Assembly (NCBI GenBank): GCA_017654855.1 | Contig: CM030334.1 | Location: forward strand, 3,224,001 to 3,288,000 | Direction: 5' to 3' | Source: Podospora anserina | Taxonomy: Eukaryota | Length of the DNA stretch: 64,000 nucleotides | Part shown: positions 20,001 through 31,679 of the stretch, in pieces | Layout: the number at the start of each line of letters is the position of its first letter | Numbering within the stretch: position 1 is the first letter of the stretch | Notes under the pieces: generated by a model | Told to the model about the DNA's origin: nothing | What the model saw: the letters and a program-made list of their open reading frames with translations, nothing else | Database searches by the model: none | Position numbers and translations under genes: made by a program

Positions 20001-20203
20001 ATCACCGCCAAGCCGAGTTTCAACACCAGTCACCACACCCGACACCAGCTAACATCTGCCGCCCGATCCGCGTCCCCCTCTCTTCGTGTGTGCCGACCGC
20101 CTCATCCGCCATCTCCCACCCCCGCTGAGAGCTCACGACTGACTGAGCTCGTTCAAGACTGCCCTGCCAGTCCGTCATGTTCTCGCTATAAAGGAGCGCC
20201 GAG

Positions 20204-23123
20204 ATGACCACCTTTATCAAGGAACACAAATGGGTCAACAACCATGGCCAGCCCCCTTCCAAGAGACGGAGGATCAATGCTGCGTATGTGGTTTTTCTTT
20301 TCTTTCTTTTTTTTTTCGTCTATCTCTCTCCCTCTCTTTCTCTCTCTCTGTACCGCTGGACCAGCTCTAAAAATATTCCTAGATGCTTGACATGTCGCAA
20401 AAGGAAAACCCGGTGCGCGGGCGAGAGACCGGTGTGTTCGACATGTGCCAAAAATGGCCACACTTGTCTCGGCTACAACGATTTGGATGAGAAGAAGAGG
20501 CCAGCAAATGGAGGGCCGTCAGATGCACAGGATTATGGGGACGACTACACAAAGCACGAGCATGAGGAGAACTACCTGAACGGTGAGAACGTGGAGGTCA
20601 AGATGGAGCCTCAGCAGATGTGGCAGAACCGTGGTGAGGATAACTACGCCAACGATGGGAATAAAAAGGGGGACCAACGATTTTGGAAGAGTCAGTCACA
20701 GTCACATTCGCAACAACAACAGCAGCAGCAACAACAACAACAACAACAACCACAGCAGAAGCCACGTATGGCGGGCTTTGTGGATGCGGATGCGCTTTCT
20801 AGACAGGACTCGGTATCAACGGCTACTGTGACGTCTGGCCGGCGGCGGAAACACAGCAATGATTGGGATCAGGACGATAACTCTCAGAAATCGAATAACC
20901 GGAGCTCGAGTAACCGGTCGCCTGTTGAGCATCAGCATCAGCATCAGCACGAAAGTCACCGGGTGCCCTACTTTAGGTATTTTGGGCCGACTGCCATCGT
21001 CCCAGGCTTCAAGCAGATGGTGGTGGACATCTCGCGCGAGATTCATCGTGATAGGCGCAAGAGTCGGGGCAGTTCCTTCTCGACAACATCACCAGGGTCA
21101 TTGTACGGGTGCGGTGCAGGGCAGCACCATTTCACCAACCCGGGAACCGAGTTCGACAGTCTCGAAGACATTCCGGTTTATGACGTGAACGATTCGAATC
21201 CGGTTCACCCTTTGATCCTCAACCTCGCCATAACCTTCTTCACTCACCTTGGTTGCAACTATCAGTTTATGCGAAAGGATAGGACCCTGCGCATGCTCAA
21301 GGAAAAGAGACTGGAGCCCATCTTGGTAGATGCAATGTGCGCTTTGGCAGCTCGCTTTTCTGACGACCCCATCTTCATCAACCCACATGACGGAAAAGAA
21401 AAGAGATCAGAGTTCGGGCAGGTGTTCGCTCGGCGTGCCAAAGCGGCCACGGTGGACACTTTCCCATGCCCATCCGTTGCTGCTGTGCAGGCCTGTCTTT
21501 TGATGGCATACGAAGGGTTCGGGGCAAACCAGGACAGCGCTCTCTGGATGTATTTGGGCCTGGCCATCAGGATGGCGGTCGATCTCGGTCTTCAGAAGCT
21601 GGAAGGTGTCAAGTACCAAGGTGAACGAGATCCTTGGTACACGAGAAGCTGGAGCCGGAAAAGCAACGATGGATCCGATGAACCCGAGGGAAAGCGAAAC
21701 GACGAAGAGGTTTTGGGGCCGCACGAGCAGCGCGAGGTGGAACAGGAGCGCATGGATACCTTTTGGGCTGTCTTTGTTCTGGACCGTGTCATATCGTCGG
21801 GAACAGGACGTCCAGTCACGTTCCGTGACGACGACTTTGAGCTGTCTCTTCCGGAGCACGCCATCGATCCGGTCTCGGGCTGGCCCGACCCCTTCCCGCC
21901 GTTCATCGAGATCATCCACCTGTACGGCAGAGTGTCGGATGTTTTGAACAATATCCGGGATGCCAACGACCTCACCGAGGAGAAGATGCAGAAGCTTGCA
22001 CAGATGGAGATTGACTTGAGCCACATTTACAAGAAGCAGGATTCGCGGCTCCATTTTGACCCTGCCAACTTTCGAAAGTATGTCGAGGCAGGAAAAGGCA
22101 CCATCTTTATTCTGCTGCACTTTTGGTTCCACGCTCTGATCGTTGTCCTTCATCAGCCGACGCTGTTGACTCCGTTTTACAGCCTCAGACCGACTCAGTT
22201 GCTGCCGAACAGCCGGGAGCTCTCCATGTCGAGTGCCAAAACCATTGCTGACATCCTCGCCTTTGCCGACCTGATCGACCCAAAGAGTTTTATCGGGAAC
22301 CCGTTCACATCCCAGCCAATTTACATCGCTGCATGTGCCTTCTTGATGGAATCTGGAGCGAATGCGTCACACCCCCCTTCGCGAGAGCCATCACCTTCTC
22401 CAGAAGCCAAGTCTCGCTTTTTCAAAGGCATCCCTGGGAAATTGGGCCCATCTATTGACCCCCGACAGAAACACTCACTCCTTGTCTCTGCTGCCAATTC
22501 GAACTACACGCGGTGTTACAAGTCTCTCCAGCAACTGCAGCAGTACTGGGCGGGCGTCGGTTACATTCTCAACGCCCTGGACCAAAAATCAAAGGGCATC
22601 TGGGACTGCGAGACGTTCACAAAGGAGGAATACGAACCCATCACGCTGGCCCGTCGTCGTTCACTGGAACGCTTGCCGCGATTTGAGCATCCCGCCTCGC
22701 CCAACGTTCCACCCATCGCATACTCTCTTACTGGGACCACAAACTCGCCAAACTCGAACCTGACGGTCTTGTTCCAGAATCCAGCAAATACCACACTTCA
22801 GCCCATACCGCCACCTCCACCTCTCTCGGTTCCCGTGTCTGCCGCAACACCTCCTGGGAACATGACATATGATCCCGTCCGGCAAAGCCTTCCAGACACT
22901 CCATCTGCTATGCTCCCGCCGGCCTATCCCCAAGCCAATATTTCGGCTCTGCGCTACCAGTCGAGAACCCCCAAACTGTCCAGGTTACCACAATCGCCGG
23001 CAATGGGCAAGTCCCTACTAAAATACGAATCCTCCCCCTCTGTCGACTTAGACCTGCAAACACCCCCACCCGCAGACAGACATCAGAGGCAGAACCACCA
23101 CCCCACGCATCATCAGACCAGCC

Positions 23124-23199
<76 letters not shown>

Positions 23200-23710
23200 C
23201 CAGAACCACCACCACATCCCCTCCTACGCCTCCTCCTCCTCTTCCACCACCACCCACCACCACCACCACCACCACCACCACTCCTCCAACACCTCAAGCT
23301 ACAAAACCTCGACCGCGCACGAGGGGTCCCCTTCCACAACCCCGACAGATTCCGGTTTGCACCACTACCAGCACAATTCCCACGACCATCATCACGGGAA
23401 TCACCACGACAACCATCACGACGATAACAGCGTAGGTCATAACGAGTACGAGACAGATTTTAGTCATGGTGGGTTGGTTTCAGGGGGAGGAGGAGGAGGA
23501 GGAGGAGGAGGAGGAGGGGGAGGGGGGTACGGGTACTTGGAGATTAATCCGATAAGCGAGGCGATTACTTCGAATAGCTTTGAAGTGAATTTTGATATGT
23601 TGGGGCTGCAGAGCGATTTGATGATGCCGCCTTGGTTGGAGACTTTACCTGGGGAGGTGCTGGGGGGGTTGTTTGAGGGGGGATTGATGCATCATGGGCA
23701 GCATATGTGA
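20204..23710 (+). CDS. Zn(II)2Cys6 transcription factor with fungal-specific TF (middle homology) domain
   Basis: Removing intron 20284-20382 (GTATGT..TAG, 99 nt) gives RINAACLTCRKRKTRCAGERPVCSTCAKNGHTC. MHR motif ALWMYLGLAIRMAVDLGL..TFWAVFVLDR..GRP. Poly-Q, poly-N, poly-H and poly-G tracts. Confidence 0.93.
23124..23200 (+). repeat. (AAC)n coding repeat (poly-Asn, ~25 residues)
   Basis: Perfect AAC run inside the TF C-terminal region, followed by CAC (poly-His) and GGA (poly-Gly) runs. Confidence 0.95.
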
Positions 23711-26700: not shown

Positions 26701-26945
26701 CCCGTCCATCTGGCCCGACACTCGGATCCTGGCCCGGATCCCGGTTTCTGGGAAAGCGTCGAGAGAGCGCGAGACGGATCTGCCACTGGCGAGAGCCGCT
26801 GACGGAGGTGTGGGAGGAGGAGGAGGAGTAAGTAGGGCGAAGAAATTCTATCAAGTATTTGACCCCTCCCACCTCCTGCTCGTCCCAAACTTTCCATCGT
26901 GATCTCTCCATCCTTCTTCTCTTTTTTCCCAAGATACCCAGTGCT

Positions 26946-26946
<1 letters not shown>

Positions 26947-26990
<44 letters not shown>
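26947..26990. repeat. (CT)n microsatellite in the 5' region of the monooxygenase
   Basis: About 21 CT units 75-115 bp upstream of ATG 27064. Confidence 0.95.
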
Positions 26991-26994
<4 letters not shown>

Positions 26995-27063
26995 CTTTTT
27001 TCTTGTTTCTTTGGATCATCACCCCCCTTTCTAGACATCACATACACACACTCAGTCTTCACA

Positions 27064-29054
27064 ATGGCCTCTGAGCAGAAGCAGCACCCCAGCCCCAACC
27101 ATTATGACATTGGTAAGCCTCCTCCTTAAGACTCACAGACAAGAAGTAGTAGAGTGAGAAATATCTAACACCCAAGACAGTCATTGTTGGTGCCGGTCCC
27201 GTCGGCCTGATGCTCTCGACCTGCCTGGCGAGATGGGGTTACAAGATCAAGCACATCGACAACAGACCTGAGCCTACCGCCACTGGCCGTGCCGATGGCA
27301 TCCAGCCCCGTTCCCTCGATCTCCTCCGCAACATGGGCCTCAAGTCGGCCATCATGGCCCACAAGCCCGCTCGTGTCTACGAGGTTGCTTTCTGGGACCC
27401 TCCCACCGGCGGCAAGGGCATTGCCCGTACCGGCACCTGGGCCTCTTGCCCCGACTTCATCGACGCCAGATACCCCTTCACCACCCTCCTCCACCAGGGT
27501 CTGATCGAGCGTGCTTTCATCGCCGACCTCGAGAAGAACAACACCACCGTCCAGCGCCCCTGGACCATCACCGGCTTCACCTCTGACGAGCAGGCCGACC
27601 CCGAGTACCCCGTCAGCGTCGAGCTCCAGCACGTCGACGGCACCTTCAAGGAGAGCGTCAAGGCCAAGTACCTCTTCGGCGGCGAGGGCGCCCGCTCCTT
27701 CGTCCGTGACCAGCTCAAGATTGGCATCACCCACAAGGACCCCATCGCCTACGTCTGGGGTGTCATGGACGGTGTCGTCAAGACCGACTTCCCCGACATC
27801 AAGATGAAGTGCACCATCCACTCGGAGCACGGCTCCATCATGGTCATCCCCCGCGAGGACAACATGGTCCGCCTCTACATCCAGATCGCCTCCTCCACCG
27901 ACCCCGACTTCAACCCCCGCAAGACGGCCACCGTCGAGGAGGTCCAGGCCTCGGCCAAGCGCATCCTCCAGCCCTACAGCATCGAGTGGGAGCGCGTCGA
28001 GTGGTACTCTGTCTACCCCATCGGCCAGGGCATTTCCGACAAGTACACCCTCGACCACCGCGTCTTCCTTGGCGGCGACGCCTGCCACACCCACTCCCCC
28101 AAGGCCGGCCAGGGCATGAACACTGCCTTCCTCGACGCCCTCAACCTCGCCTGGAAGATCCACGCCGTCGAGGGCGGCCTCGCCCACAAGTCCATCCTCG
28201 AGACCTACGAGCCCGAGCGCAAGGACGTCGCCGAGACTCTTTTGTCTTTCGACAACAAGTACGCCAAGCTCTTCTCCCAGCGCCCCCCCTCGTCCAACGA
28301 GGTCGCCGCCGCCACGGCCCAGAAGGCCTCCTCCGGCGCCGAGGAAAACGAATTCATCAAGACCTTCAAGGAGTCCTGCTCTTTCACTTCCGGCTACGGC
28401 GTAGCCTACAAGGCCAACCAGCTCAACTGGTCCCCCGAGCACCCGGCCCAATCCCACGTCATCGCCAAGTCTGACGCCCTGGTCCCCGGCCGCCTCTTCA
28501 GGAACGCCGACGTCACCCGCGTCGTCGACGCCAACGTCGTCCATCTGGAGCAGGAGATCCCCCTCAACGGCGCCTTCCGCCTCTTCGTCTTCGCCGGCAA
28601 GCCCTCCGTCACGGGCCAAGCCCTCAAGGACTTCGCCGCCGGCCTCGCCAAGAAGAACAGCTTCTACTCTGCCTACCAGCGCGCCGATATCGACTCTGTC
28701 TCTCACCACGAGAGGCACAACCCCCACTCCAAGTTCTTCACCATCTGCACTGTCTTTGCCGCCAAGAGGAACGAGATTGAGATTAGCCGGGACTTGCCTG
28801 CGCTGCTGGCGAGGTACAAGGACAATGTTTATGCTGATGATCGGTGGTCGAGGAATTTCCCTGACGCGAAGGCGATGGCGCATGCGAAGATGGGGTTGGA
28901 TGAGGAAAGGGGTGGGGTTGTGGTTGTTAGGCCGGATGGGTACACTGGTGTTGTTGTTGCGCTGGAGGAGGGGAGCGCGACGGTGGACGCGCTGAATGCG
29001 TACTTTGGGGCTTTTGCGAGCAAGAAGTTGGGGGAGGCGCAGGCTCAGCTTTGA
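27064..29054 (+). CDS. FAD-dependent phenol 2-monooxygenase-like aromatic hydroxylase
   Basis: Exon 27064-27112, intron 27113-27180 (GTAAGC..CTAAC..CAG). Motifs [12 protein letters not shown] (Rossmann), [52 protein letters not shown], and the C-terminal dimerisation motif VVVRPDGY. Strong codon bias. Confidence 0.95.
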
Positions 29055-29527
29055 CTAGGGAGTAGGTTGTGAAGGAGGGGAAAAGAAAGGGGTAGCCATG
29101 GGAATAAGGAGTTTTTTTACTTTTTTGCTTTTTTTTTTGTTTGTTTTTGGGAATAATGAGGGATCAATCACAACTTGAAAGATTTTGAAAGGGGGATTCT
29201 CTTTTTGAGAGAGGGGGATCTTCTAGGATATTTCGCATTGTATAAATATATATATATATATAGCATCATCTCATGAGTTGTTCTGTTTAGGTTTTTTTTG
29301 GTATATAATTGTTCAAAAACTCTTGTTGTTCGTCTTGAAATGTGATGGGGTTTATAGGTACACACATCAATTTGCTTCCTAACATACACCAGATATATAC
29401 CCCTTTCCTTTTTTCCCCATCCATATTTACCTTGTTGAATACCCACCCCCCGCCCCTTATAAACGCCGCCACTTTCCCACACCCTCGTCATTATGCATAC
29501 AAAACCATCATTACCCCCCTTGGTTCC

Positions 29528-31679
29528 TCACCCGAAAACCAAACTAACCTCCATCTCCCTACAAACAGTCCTCCACAGCTCCTCCCTCTCCTCCTCCTTC
29601 CCCTTTGCCTTCCCCCCTTCCTCCTTGTCCTTCTCCTTCCCCTTCTCCTCCTCATCCACCCGTCTCCAAACCTCACCCACAACCTCCCACGCCCTTCCAA
29701 TATTCCTCATCCCCTGCCTTCGTTCCACCTTCTCAAACGCCTCCCTCGCCAACTCCCTATCCCTCCCCTCCCCCGCCTCACAAGCAGCCACAAACAACGG
29801 CCAAAGCAAAGCCGACATCGGCCCCCTATGCCCAACAGTGGCCACACAATTCTTCAGCGTCAACCTCGTGTGCCTCCTCACAAGCCCATGCCCCCTCCCA
29901 TACCCGAGAATGGTCCGATACAAATAAAGCAAAGAAGCATGCCGGTACGCAAGCGAGTTGTGGTATATGCTCGGGATATTACTCGACTTCCCCCTGCTAG
30001 CCACAACAGGCACCGGGTCCGCTTCTGGATCATCATTCCCCTCCGGAGGCGTAAAGTCAGCAGGCAGCTGCGGCTGCCAGTTGTTCAACGCTGCCTCGAT
30101 CGCCTGTGCCGTGGAGCTGAATTCTGTTCTCAAGACGGCAATCTTTGTCGGGGAGGAGTTGGACGAGATGGCGTGGTCGAGGGAGGATTTGAGGGAGGAG
30201 AGGCCGGAGAGTCGGTGGATGATGGGCCAGAGGGTGGTTGACATGCCGAGTAGAGTGTCAATGTTGCTCAGCGGGGAGGTGGGCGTCGCGCCGATGGGGG
30301 AGAAGGGGAGCAGGCCGCCCGGGGAGGGGGTGGTGCTGATCGGGGAGGTGTTGTTTGACAAAGCAGTGATCACGTCGTAGAACCGAAAGGCTCTCTCGAG
30401 AAAGACGCCTGCCGGGTCGAGCAGGTCGTCGGTGCTGCACATTATTGTCAGGGCGCCCTTTAGGTGGCCGGCTACGATGTTGGAGCGGCCTTTTTGGACG
30501 AGCTAGCATGCAGGGTGTCAGCACTGATCTGGAGGTTCCAAGACGTTGCGGTTGAGCTTACGCATTCATAATACACAAGCAGCATTATGGCCGCCAGAAT
30601 GTCCGTCCTGTTGGCCTTTTCCTTTTGCGCAATCATCTGCGCCACGCCCTGTATGGCCTGGTTGTGAAAGTAAAGAGACTTTTCCGAGTTCTCAATCCCG
30701 CGATACTCGAGGTGGGCGCACGAAAGCGCAAGGATCGAGTTGAGCACCGGTGGGCTCTTGCGTGTGAGCGGGAGTATCAATTGCTGAAACGGATTGCCCG
30801 TCTCCTCGCGAAAGACGATGAGATGTGACAAGACGTTGCAGAAGTGATCGATCAGCGCCCTGCGGTTCGGACGCTCGGTGAACTCGGTAAAGGCGGGGGC
30901 GTGAAACTCTTGAAGCGGCGACGCTACAGAACATGGCGCAATCATGGCCAAGTCAGGAGGCGCCTTCGATGCAGCTCGTGGTGATATCGGCCCGGCGGCA
31001 GGTGAGGCCCCTTCATCGTCAGCGGGGGCATCGGCCTCCGGGCTTCCTCCGTTTGGCGATTCTTGCGGGTCCTCGTTGGGGTAGTCGTCCAAGATGTCGA
31101 TGGGAGGGTACTCGCCGAGGGAGAAATGAGTGTTGAAGATAACAGCTGGCGGCTCCCCGTAACGCGTCAAGTCTTGACCACGGTTCTCGACACCCCAACC
31201 GAGATAACTAGAGTTGTGACTGTAATAGCTGAGTTCAGATAGTCGTCGAGCTCCCGAGTAGTGTTCGGAAGATGTACCCGCTGCCGTGTGCGGCGCAGAT
31301 TCACGTCGTTTTCGCTGTCTTGGTTTCACAGTCCCGTACACACACTCAACACCTTGCTCTGAGCAACGCGAGCAGGTCGGCCGTTTCTCGTCGCACTTCT
31401 TCTTCTGTCAAGGCTATTAGAAACACAGTCTGCCCAAAGACTGTAGGGCAACCAGACAAACCTTTTCTTTGCTGCATTGGAGTCAGAAAAACATATCAAA
31501 CCAAGTAGCAGCTGTGTCAAGCAGGCAATGTGGGAACTCACCAGAATGTACAACCTATATCCCAAACATATCTTGTTAGCTGTCTGATGTGACGGGCAAG
31601 TTATGAATGCATTGTTCTTACCTCCTCTTGACCGCCTCTTGGGTGGCTTTGGAGGCGCCAGTCGCGTGTACAGCAACAT
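29528..31679 (-). CDS. Zn(II)2Cys6 transcription factor with Fungal_trans_2-type domain
   Basis: Exons 31679-31622, 31554-31542 (13 nt), 31471-31462 (10 nt), 31404-30562, 30502-29528 splice to [67 protein letters not shown] and [12 protein letters not shown]. The start codon is the least certain part. Confidence 0.88.

Follow-up and report, generated by a model that had tools for sequence, protein, structure and literature searches.

A candidate readthrough-exposed peroxisomal targeting signal behind the stop codon of a Podospora anserina phenol 2-monooxygenase

The DNA analysed here is a stretch of 64,000 nt from Podospora anserina (contig CM030334.1 of assembly GCA_017654855.1, positions 3,224,001–3,288,000), referred to below as the window, and its subject is a phenol 2-monooxygenase gene on the plus strand whose stop codon is followed in frame by a putative cryptic type 1 signal for peroxisomal targeting (PTS1). 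From CAG at 29040, the end of the gene reads CAG GCT CAG CTT TGA CTA (29055–29057) GGG AGT AGG TTG (29067–29069) TGA, and readthrough of the first TGA would, by translation of this strand, give X-L-G-S-R-L followed by a stop. Since G follows CTA, the first stop stands in the extended context UGA CUA G, and the arrangement associated with readthrough PTS1 isoforms (UGA then CU, at best CUA G) is found at 29052–29058. The extension L-G-S-R-L is in frame and uninterrupted, and its last three residues fall within the rule [SAC][KRH][LM] before the next TGA. A preliminary description of this DNA had read the site in the same way, and both that reading and the background it invoked proved right, cryptic PTS1s made by readthrough at UGA CU(A)(G) being described in PMC4207609, PMC4359377 and PMC9549241; what it overlooked is that the protein as normally terminated already has a conserved, PTS1-like end, -AQL.

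The gene encodes a product of 640 amino acids from two exons, starting at ATG 27064 (Table 1). The reading frame is confirmed by a 633-codon open frame (27153–29054) and by a position-by-position alignment of its C-terminus with those of 120 homologues. The protein contains an N-terminal GxGxxG motif (VIVGAGPVG), a FAD_binding_3 domain (PF01494, 1e-62, residues 2–358) and the thioredoxin-like dimerisation domain Phe_hydrox_dim (PF07976, 1.8e-50, residues 409–617), and its best PDB match is the phenol 2-monooxygenase 8r2u (1.7e-104), with 1pn0 and 1foh at ~1e-98. It is 99.8% identical to a 640-residue protein listed for four Podospora taxa, a score obtained with a query whose first residue came from the intron, a possible source of the single mismatch, and 99.4–99.5% identical to the proteins of P. 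comata and P. bellae-mahoneyi. Protein identity is lower for Cercophora samala (97%), Triangularia setosa (96.5%), Apiosordaria backusii (96%), T. verruculosa (94%) and Podospora australis (91%).

Two spliced RNA contigs of 2418 and 2407 nt, from two runs (X15 and X16) of two studies, cover 27013–27111 and 27180–29429 (or 29419) with 0 differences and with adapter-like letters beyond. Although these runs had been labelled 'RNA?' by guess, the splice joint, which connects 27111/27112 to 27180/27181, argues for RNA. The only intron skipped by the contigs is that at ~27113–27180, and no joint occurs near the 3' end; because the contigs span this end unchanged, the stop codon, its context and the extension are all present on the mature mRNA. 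The 3' untranslated region (UTR) measures ~370 nt and includes a T-rich tract (29104–29150) and a (TA)n run (29245–29262), and a long (CT)n microsatellite (~26945–26992) sits just upstream of the mRNA 5' end, at 27013 according to the RNA contigs.

Table 1. Features of the phenol 2-monooxygenase gene and its stop region; positions are those of the window.
Feature	Position	Strand	Evidence or remark
Exon 1	27064..27112	+	ATG 27064, 16 codons + 1 base; N-terminus identical to Podospora proteins
Intron, 68 nt, GT..AG	27113..27180	+	RNA runs X15 and X16 each have one contig with this joint (cut +1)
Exon 2, remainder of 640-codon coding sequence	27181..29051	+	Open frame, Pfam domains, PDB match
Native tripeptide Ala-Gln-Leu (GCT CAG CTT)	29043..29051	+	Conserved, PTS1-like
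Annotated stop TGA	29052..29054	+	Sequence; the aligned Leu is the last residue in 120/120 listed homologues
CTA G, leaky downstream context (UGA CUA G)	29055..29058	+	Motif defined in PMC4207609 and PMC4359377
Putative readthrough extension Leu-Gly-Ser-Arg-Leu	29055..29069	+	Ends in the canonical PTS1 tripeptide Ser-Arg-Leu (29061-29069)
Second in-frame stop TGA	29070..29072	+	Sequence
Rest of 3' UTR	29073..29429	+	Contig ends at 29419 and 29429

Relatives of the gene were drawn from two sources. A word-based protein search returned 710 homologues at E ≤ 0.001, and among the best 120 of these, which share 67–91% identity over the last 246 residues, none (0/120) has a C-terminal extension, every one ending at the aligned Leu. 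A metagenome scan with an alignment of the last 150 residues produced 433 pattern matches, from which 219 relatives were confirmed. The best 80 of them, retained as loci, are distant relatives at 61–79% identity; 79 of the 80 contain the stop codon (L072 runs off its contig), and 61 are distinct.

The odds of a chance occurrence were estimated from the 64-kb window read in six frames. Stop-to-stop peptides ending in [SAC][KRH][LM] account for 13 of 3804 (0.34%), and TGA is followed by CTA in 10 of 2066 cases and by CTAG in 2 of 2066. The monooxygenase site is the only one in the window that combines TGA-CTA with a PTS1, and one of two that combine TGA-CT with a PTS1. The other, at ~13242 on the minus strand, ends in -CRL after 212 codons and was taken as chance, there being no recognisable gene end at that position. 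Given that 25 of the 79 orthologous loci use TGA as their stop, the joint chance is ~5e-6 per gene. An alternative frequency of UGA CUA was taken from the human genome, with a total of ~20,000 genes. Based on the 144 human genes reported with UGA CUA in PMC4359377, the joint chance becomes ~2.4e-5 per gene. Between 0.05 and 0.25 chance cases are accordingly expected per 10,000-gene genome, so the combination of motif and PTS1 is rare per gene, but a large scan will come across it. The preliminary description held the co-occurrence to be unlikely by chance; this stands for the single gene (~0.5–2.4e-5), but not strongly for a whole genome or a scan.

The native end of the protein deserves separate attention. 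The tripeptide -AQL lies outside [SAC][KRH][LM] and is therefore no canonical native PTS1, and no PTS type 2 motif (R[LVI]x5[HQ][LA]) was seen by eye in the 16-residue first exon. In total, 199 orthologue ends (120 proteins and 79 loci) gave 146 distinct 14-residue tails, which terminate in AQL (91), SQL (15), ARL (7), PQL (6), ALL (5), ASL (3) and rarer tripeptides. The last residue is Leu in 142 of the 146; position -2 is Gln in 117 and Arg in 10, the alternatives to Gln being R, L, S, H, M, V and K; and position -3 is Ala in 115, Ser in 17 and Pro in 7. Positions -4 to -6 are variable, and in 53 tails position -4 is R or K. Canonical PTS1s (ARL, SRL, AHL or ARM) occur in 11 of the 146 tails, and the sister clade of Cladorrhinum and Podospora fimiseda (87–89% identity) ends in -AKL, -QKL, -EKL or -VKL, the first of these being that of P. 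fimiseda. Across the 61 distinct loci, four codons for Ala, two for Gln and all six for Leu encode the last three residues, so that what is constrained is the peptide rather than the RNA.

A representative search of the wider family listed 150 proteins, 93 of them of at least 560 residues; among these listed proteins, 3 of the 93 end in a canonical PTS1 and ~7 more in near-PTS1 tripeptides. Family members from Pisolithus end in -SRL (7/9 of the cluster), those from Rhizoctonia solani in -ARL (5/6 of the cluster), and in a Ustilaginaceae paralogue, including the Ustilago maydis protein, a variable linker leads to a terminal Q[KR]TRL in 15/15 listed members. Native ends of peroxisomal type, as judged from their tripeptides, are thus found in the phenol 2-monooxygenase class. 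A literature search yielded nothing specific on a peroxisomal phenol hydroxylase or on PTS1 ends or readthrough in this enzyme class, in agreement with the earlier statement that no such report was known. For Candida parapsilosis, PMC8929692 links growth on hydroxyaromatics to peroxisome proliferation; in that work the end of the 3-oxoadipate pathway is assigned to mitochondria, and nothing is claimed for the hydroxylase.

Structural prediction suggested that both the native and the extended end would be accessible. An AlphaFold2 model built from 122 sequences reached a mean predicted local distance difference test score (pLDDT) of 94.4 and a predicted template modelling score of 0.93; it replaced a first model from 50 close orthologues, which was poor (mean pLDDT 66.2). 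By blocks, pLDDT is 94 at residues 611–620 (..KKLGE), 54 at 621–630 and 39 at 631, and no secondary structure is predicted past 620. The last native residues and the extension probably form a flexible, exposed end, although a low pLDDT is to be expected in the extension, which has no homologues in the alignment. A conserved extreme C-terminus behind a variable linker, combined with the low-pLDDT end, would fit an accessible native PTS1, although neither of them demonstrates Pex5 binding.

The gene is flanked by two Zn2Cys6 regulators (20192–23710, plus strand; 29528–31407, minus strand), a RasGEF and Ndc1, and within ~12 kb there was no sign of a gene for ring cleavage or for any other part of an aromatic pathway. 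The upstream regulator combines Zn2Cys6 and Fungal_trans in a 1172-codon open frame, and the downstream one is a convergent Zn2Cys6/Fungal_trans_2 gene spanning 29506–31407. An X16 RNA contig of this convergent gene (depth ~850) starts at 29506, ~80 nt from the end of the monooxygenase mRNA (29419–29429), such that the 3' ends of the two genes nearly touch. Within the monooxygenase gene, separate X15 and X16 RNA contigs (depth up to 342) match just the 38 nt at 28086–28123, with 4 differences; as this segment encodes a conserved region, they probably derive from transcripts of a paralogous flavin monooxygenase. Soil metatranscriptome runs X18 and X19 contain contig pieces of relatives within 27471–28725, none of them at the stop codon (one piece, at 28172–28597, has 38 differences, together with 5 gaps, over 27% of the gene), indicating that related genes are expressed in soil.

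Taken together, these data lead us to favour, with a probability of about 0.45, a lineage-restricted readthrough PTS1 by which a small amount of an -SRL isoform would be produced and taken into peroxisomes. What the data show is the sequence, the frame, the presence of the site in spliced mRNA and the flexibility of the tail in a model; readthrough, import and any benefit are inferred. The enzyme would be a cytosolic-type phenol 2-monooxygenase using flavin adenine dinucleotide (FAD) and NADPH, with a frame whose final UGA lies in a context of weak termination, UGA CUA G; in ~1/100 translations this UGA would be decoded by a near-cognate tRNA (Trp, Arg or Cys), and the ribosome would append X-L-G-S-R-L and halt at the next UGA, giving a 646-residue isoform. 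Exposed on a flexible tail, -SRL would allow Pex5 to import a small share of the enzyme, the bulk remaining cytosolic. Dual localisation of the enzyme to cytosol and peroxisome is in this sense mechanistically plausible. In U. maydis, UGA with CUA placed between two reporters was sufficient for readthrough, UAA or UAG in place of UGA lowered it, and a following G was noted as favourable (PMC4207609); U. maydis Pgk1 is reported to undergo readthrough (PMC9549241). The signal would not extend beyond the Podospora lineage or its close relatives, either as a young adaptation or as a neutral by-product that still operates, and a possible adaptive rationale would be the placement of a flavoenzyme leaking hydrogen peroxide (H2O2) beside catalase. 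Given that the isoform is made and imported, selection for it has perhaps an even chance of being true.

A number of observations weigh against a functional readthrough signal. The stop codon itself varies among the 79 loci (TAG 30, TGA 25, TAA 24); CT follows TGA in 0 of the 25 loci ending in TGA, CTA follows any stop in 0 of 79, and a canonical PTS1 ends 0 of 77 closed extensions, of which 3 fit a very relaxed pattern (-CRI, -SSL and -EKI). In the closest loci (77–79% identity) the coding end is followed by TAA GAA, TAG GGG or TAG AGT. No RNA structure beyond that of shuffled sequences was detected 3' of the stop (z = -0.02), so basal leakiness only is to be expected, and, barring insertion of Arg at the UGA, no basic residue precedes SRL in the extension. 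A Gln-to-Arg change in the native end would moreover be a simpler route to a PTS1, and one taken by orthologues (ARL in 7 distinct tails). We know of no test of UGA CUA readthrough in any Sordariomycete. Relaxed PTS1-like motifs that lie, in any frame, no more than 30 bp behind the stop are reported for ~1% of yeast genes, with few shared between species (PMC4526572). The preliminary description had looked to conservation of TGA CTA and PTS1 among orthologues for support, and had named their joint absence as evidence against dual localisation; both are absent from all 79 of the readable loci. This weakens the claim and does not kill it, since the loci are distant and the known cases are themselves patchy: LDHBx is described for mammals only (PMC4359377), and readthrough PTS1 sites are said to have a 'patchy distribution' (PMC9549241). 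Judged from these sequences, the tag is at best a young, lineage-restricted candidate, or else accidental.

An accident is nearly as likely as a functional tag. The 3' UTR may simply happen to start CTAGGGAGTAGGTTGTGA, in which case termination would be so efficient, or the extended form so scarce, that nothing of consequence would reach peroxisomes, and the motif would decay as UTR sequence does in general. The absence of any trace of the context or the PTS1 in the orthologous loci accords with this possibility, as do the lack of a stimulatory RNA structure, the mostly species-specific nature of PTS1-like motifs behind yeast stops (PMC4526572) and a chance expectation per genome at which any scan of many genomes meets some cases. 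It has to accommodate, however, a joint probability of only ~1e-5 per gene, a match to the best-characterised leaky context up to the seventh base together with one of the strongest PTS1 tripeptides, and the further coincidence that all this occurs in a gene whose group has ends drifting in PTS1-like sequence space. It is unlikely, in our judgement, that any peroxisomal link is carried instead by the native end, with -[AS]-Q-L acting as a weak non-canonical PTS1 that would already divide the enzyme between cytosol and peroxisome across Sordariomycetes and Leotiomycetes, and the readthrough tag being redundant. The conservation of the last Leu (142/146) and of Gln at -2 (117/146), the constraint at the amino-acid level, the canonical variants ARL, SRL, AHL, ARM and AKL among orthologues and the low-confidence coil modelled at 621–631, which includes the native end, are all consistent with such a role. 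There are also precedents, -AQL being the PTS1 of the glycosomal Trypanosoma cruzi glucokinase (PMC7082770) and -SQL supporting import of alanine/glyoxylate aminotransferase (PMC2120593). Gln at -2 is nevertheless outside the experimental Histoplasma consensus, given as [ASPHC][KR][LI] in PMC13343957, and no report of a fungal -AQL PTS1 was found in the literature; the upstream residues in Sordariales are acidic or neutral (GETQAQL) rather than basic, and the tail may be kept for other reasons, such as dimer contacts invisible in a monomer model. A combination of the two signals, in which a weak -[AS]QL PTS1 operates group-wide in Sordariomycetes and Leotiomycetes and readthrough in Podospora adds a strong -SRL booster on ~1% of molecules, seems rather improbable; if true, phenol hydroxylation and H2O2 leakage would take place partly inside peroxisomes.

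The extension might also be exposed by sexual-stage adenosine-to-inosine editing, a process known from Sordariomycetes, which would convert UGA to UGG. Removal of stop codons by such editing is described in Fusarium graminearum (PMC13123824). Neither of the two RNA contigs differs at 29052–29054, though contigs drop rare variants. Fungal editing of this kind prefers U before the edited A, as in UAG, and the G that precedes it here makes a poor context; we regard this route as very improbable. Selenocysteine insertion at the UGA was ruled out, as fungi are described as lacking the machinery (PMC4207609).

The site is therefore a reasonable candidate and no discovery yet: the mechanism is known already, and it is the enzyme class that would be new for a readthrough PTS1. 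If the putative signal operates, the range of readthrough-made peroxisomal isoforms would reach beyond central redox and glycolytic enzymes into aromatic catabolism, and the signal would have been caught while young and lineage-restricted, in the 'playground behind the stop codon' that reviews have proposed. If it does not, the site would be a useful negative example, in which motif and PTS1 without conservation are insufficient for annotation. Independently of the readthrough tag, a second lead comes from the native end, conserved and PTS1-like, which bears on the site of fungal phenol hydroxylation. Podospora is a convenient system for such work, as Pex5 import mutants and translation-accuracy (suppressor and antisuppressor) mutants have been studied in it.

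Comparison with known systems places the site among several partial parallels. The PDB structures of Trichosporon cutaneum phenol hydroxylase (1foh, 1pn0) and 8r2u share with the Podospora enzyme the FAD-binding fold and the thioredoxin-like dimerisation domain (1e-98 to 1e-104), but the alignments stop 20–25 residues before the ends of those chains, which indicates that the KKLGExxAQL tail is particular to the Podospora orthologue group. The tripeptides of that native end recur in T. cruzi glucokinase (-AQL) and in alanine/glyoxylate aminotransferase (-SQL), as described in the papers cited above, although in other kingdoms. The IDP2 gene of pre-duplication yeasts also hides a PTS1 just after the stop of a cytosolic enzyme; there a translational error exposes the signal, which is presented as an evolutionary stepping stone, most such motifs being species-specific, but the bypass is a +1 frameshift rather than in-frame UGA CUA readthrough (PMC4526572). 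The U. maydis enzymes Tpi1, Pgk1, Rpe1 and Art1 share a fungal UGA CU with an in-frame PTS1, a short context being enough (PMC4207609; PMC9549241). According to these reports they are central carbon and redox enzymes, GFP-verified and found in several fungal species, whereas the Podospora enzyme is an aromatic hydroxylase whose site is absent from all 79 loci sampled. Human LDHBx is a soluble oxidoreductase with an exposed C-terminus, as predicted for the Podospora enzyme, with which it shares the Leu codon, TGA CTA G and a short extension ending in -SRL, of 7 residues in LDHBx and 6 in Podospora (PMC4359377). LDHB itself carries CTG TGA CTAG, with 1.55% readthrough, Pex5- and PTS1-dependent import through SRL and strict mammalian conservation (PMC4359377); the Podospora site differs in being known from sequence and in its enzyme class. 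In the layout of its letters, it nonetheless closely copies the LDHB arrangement, which is its closest parallel.

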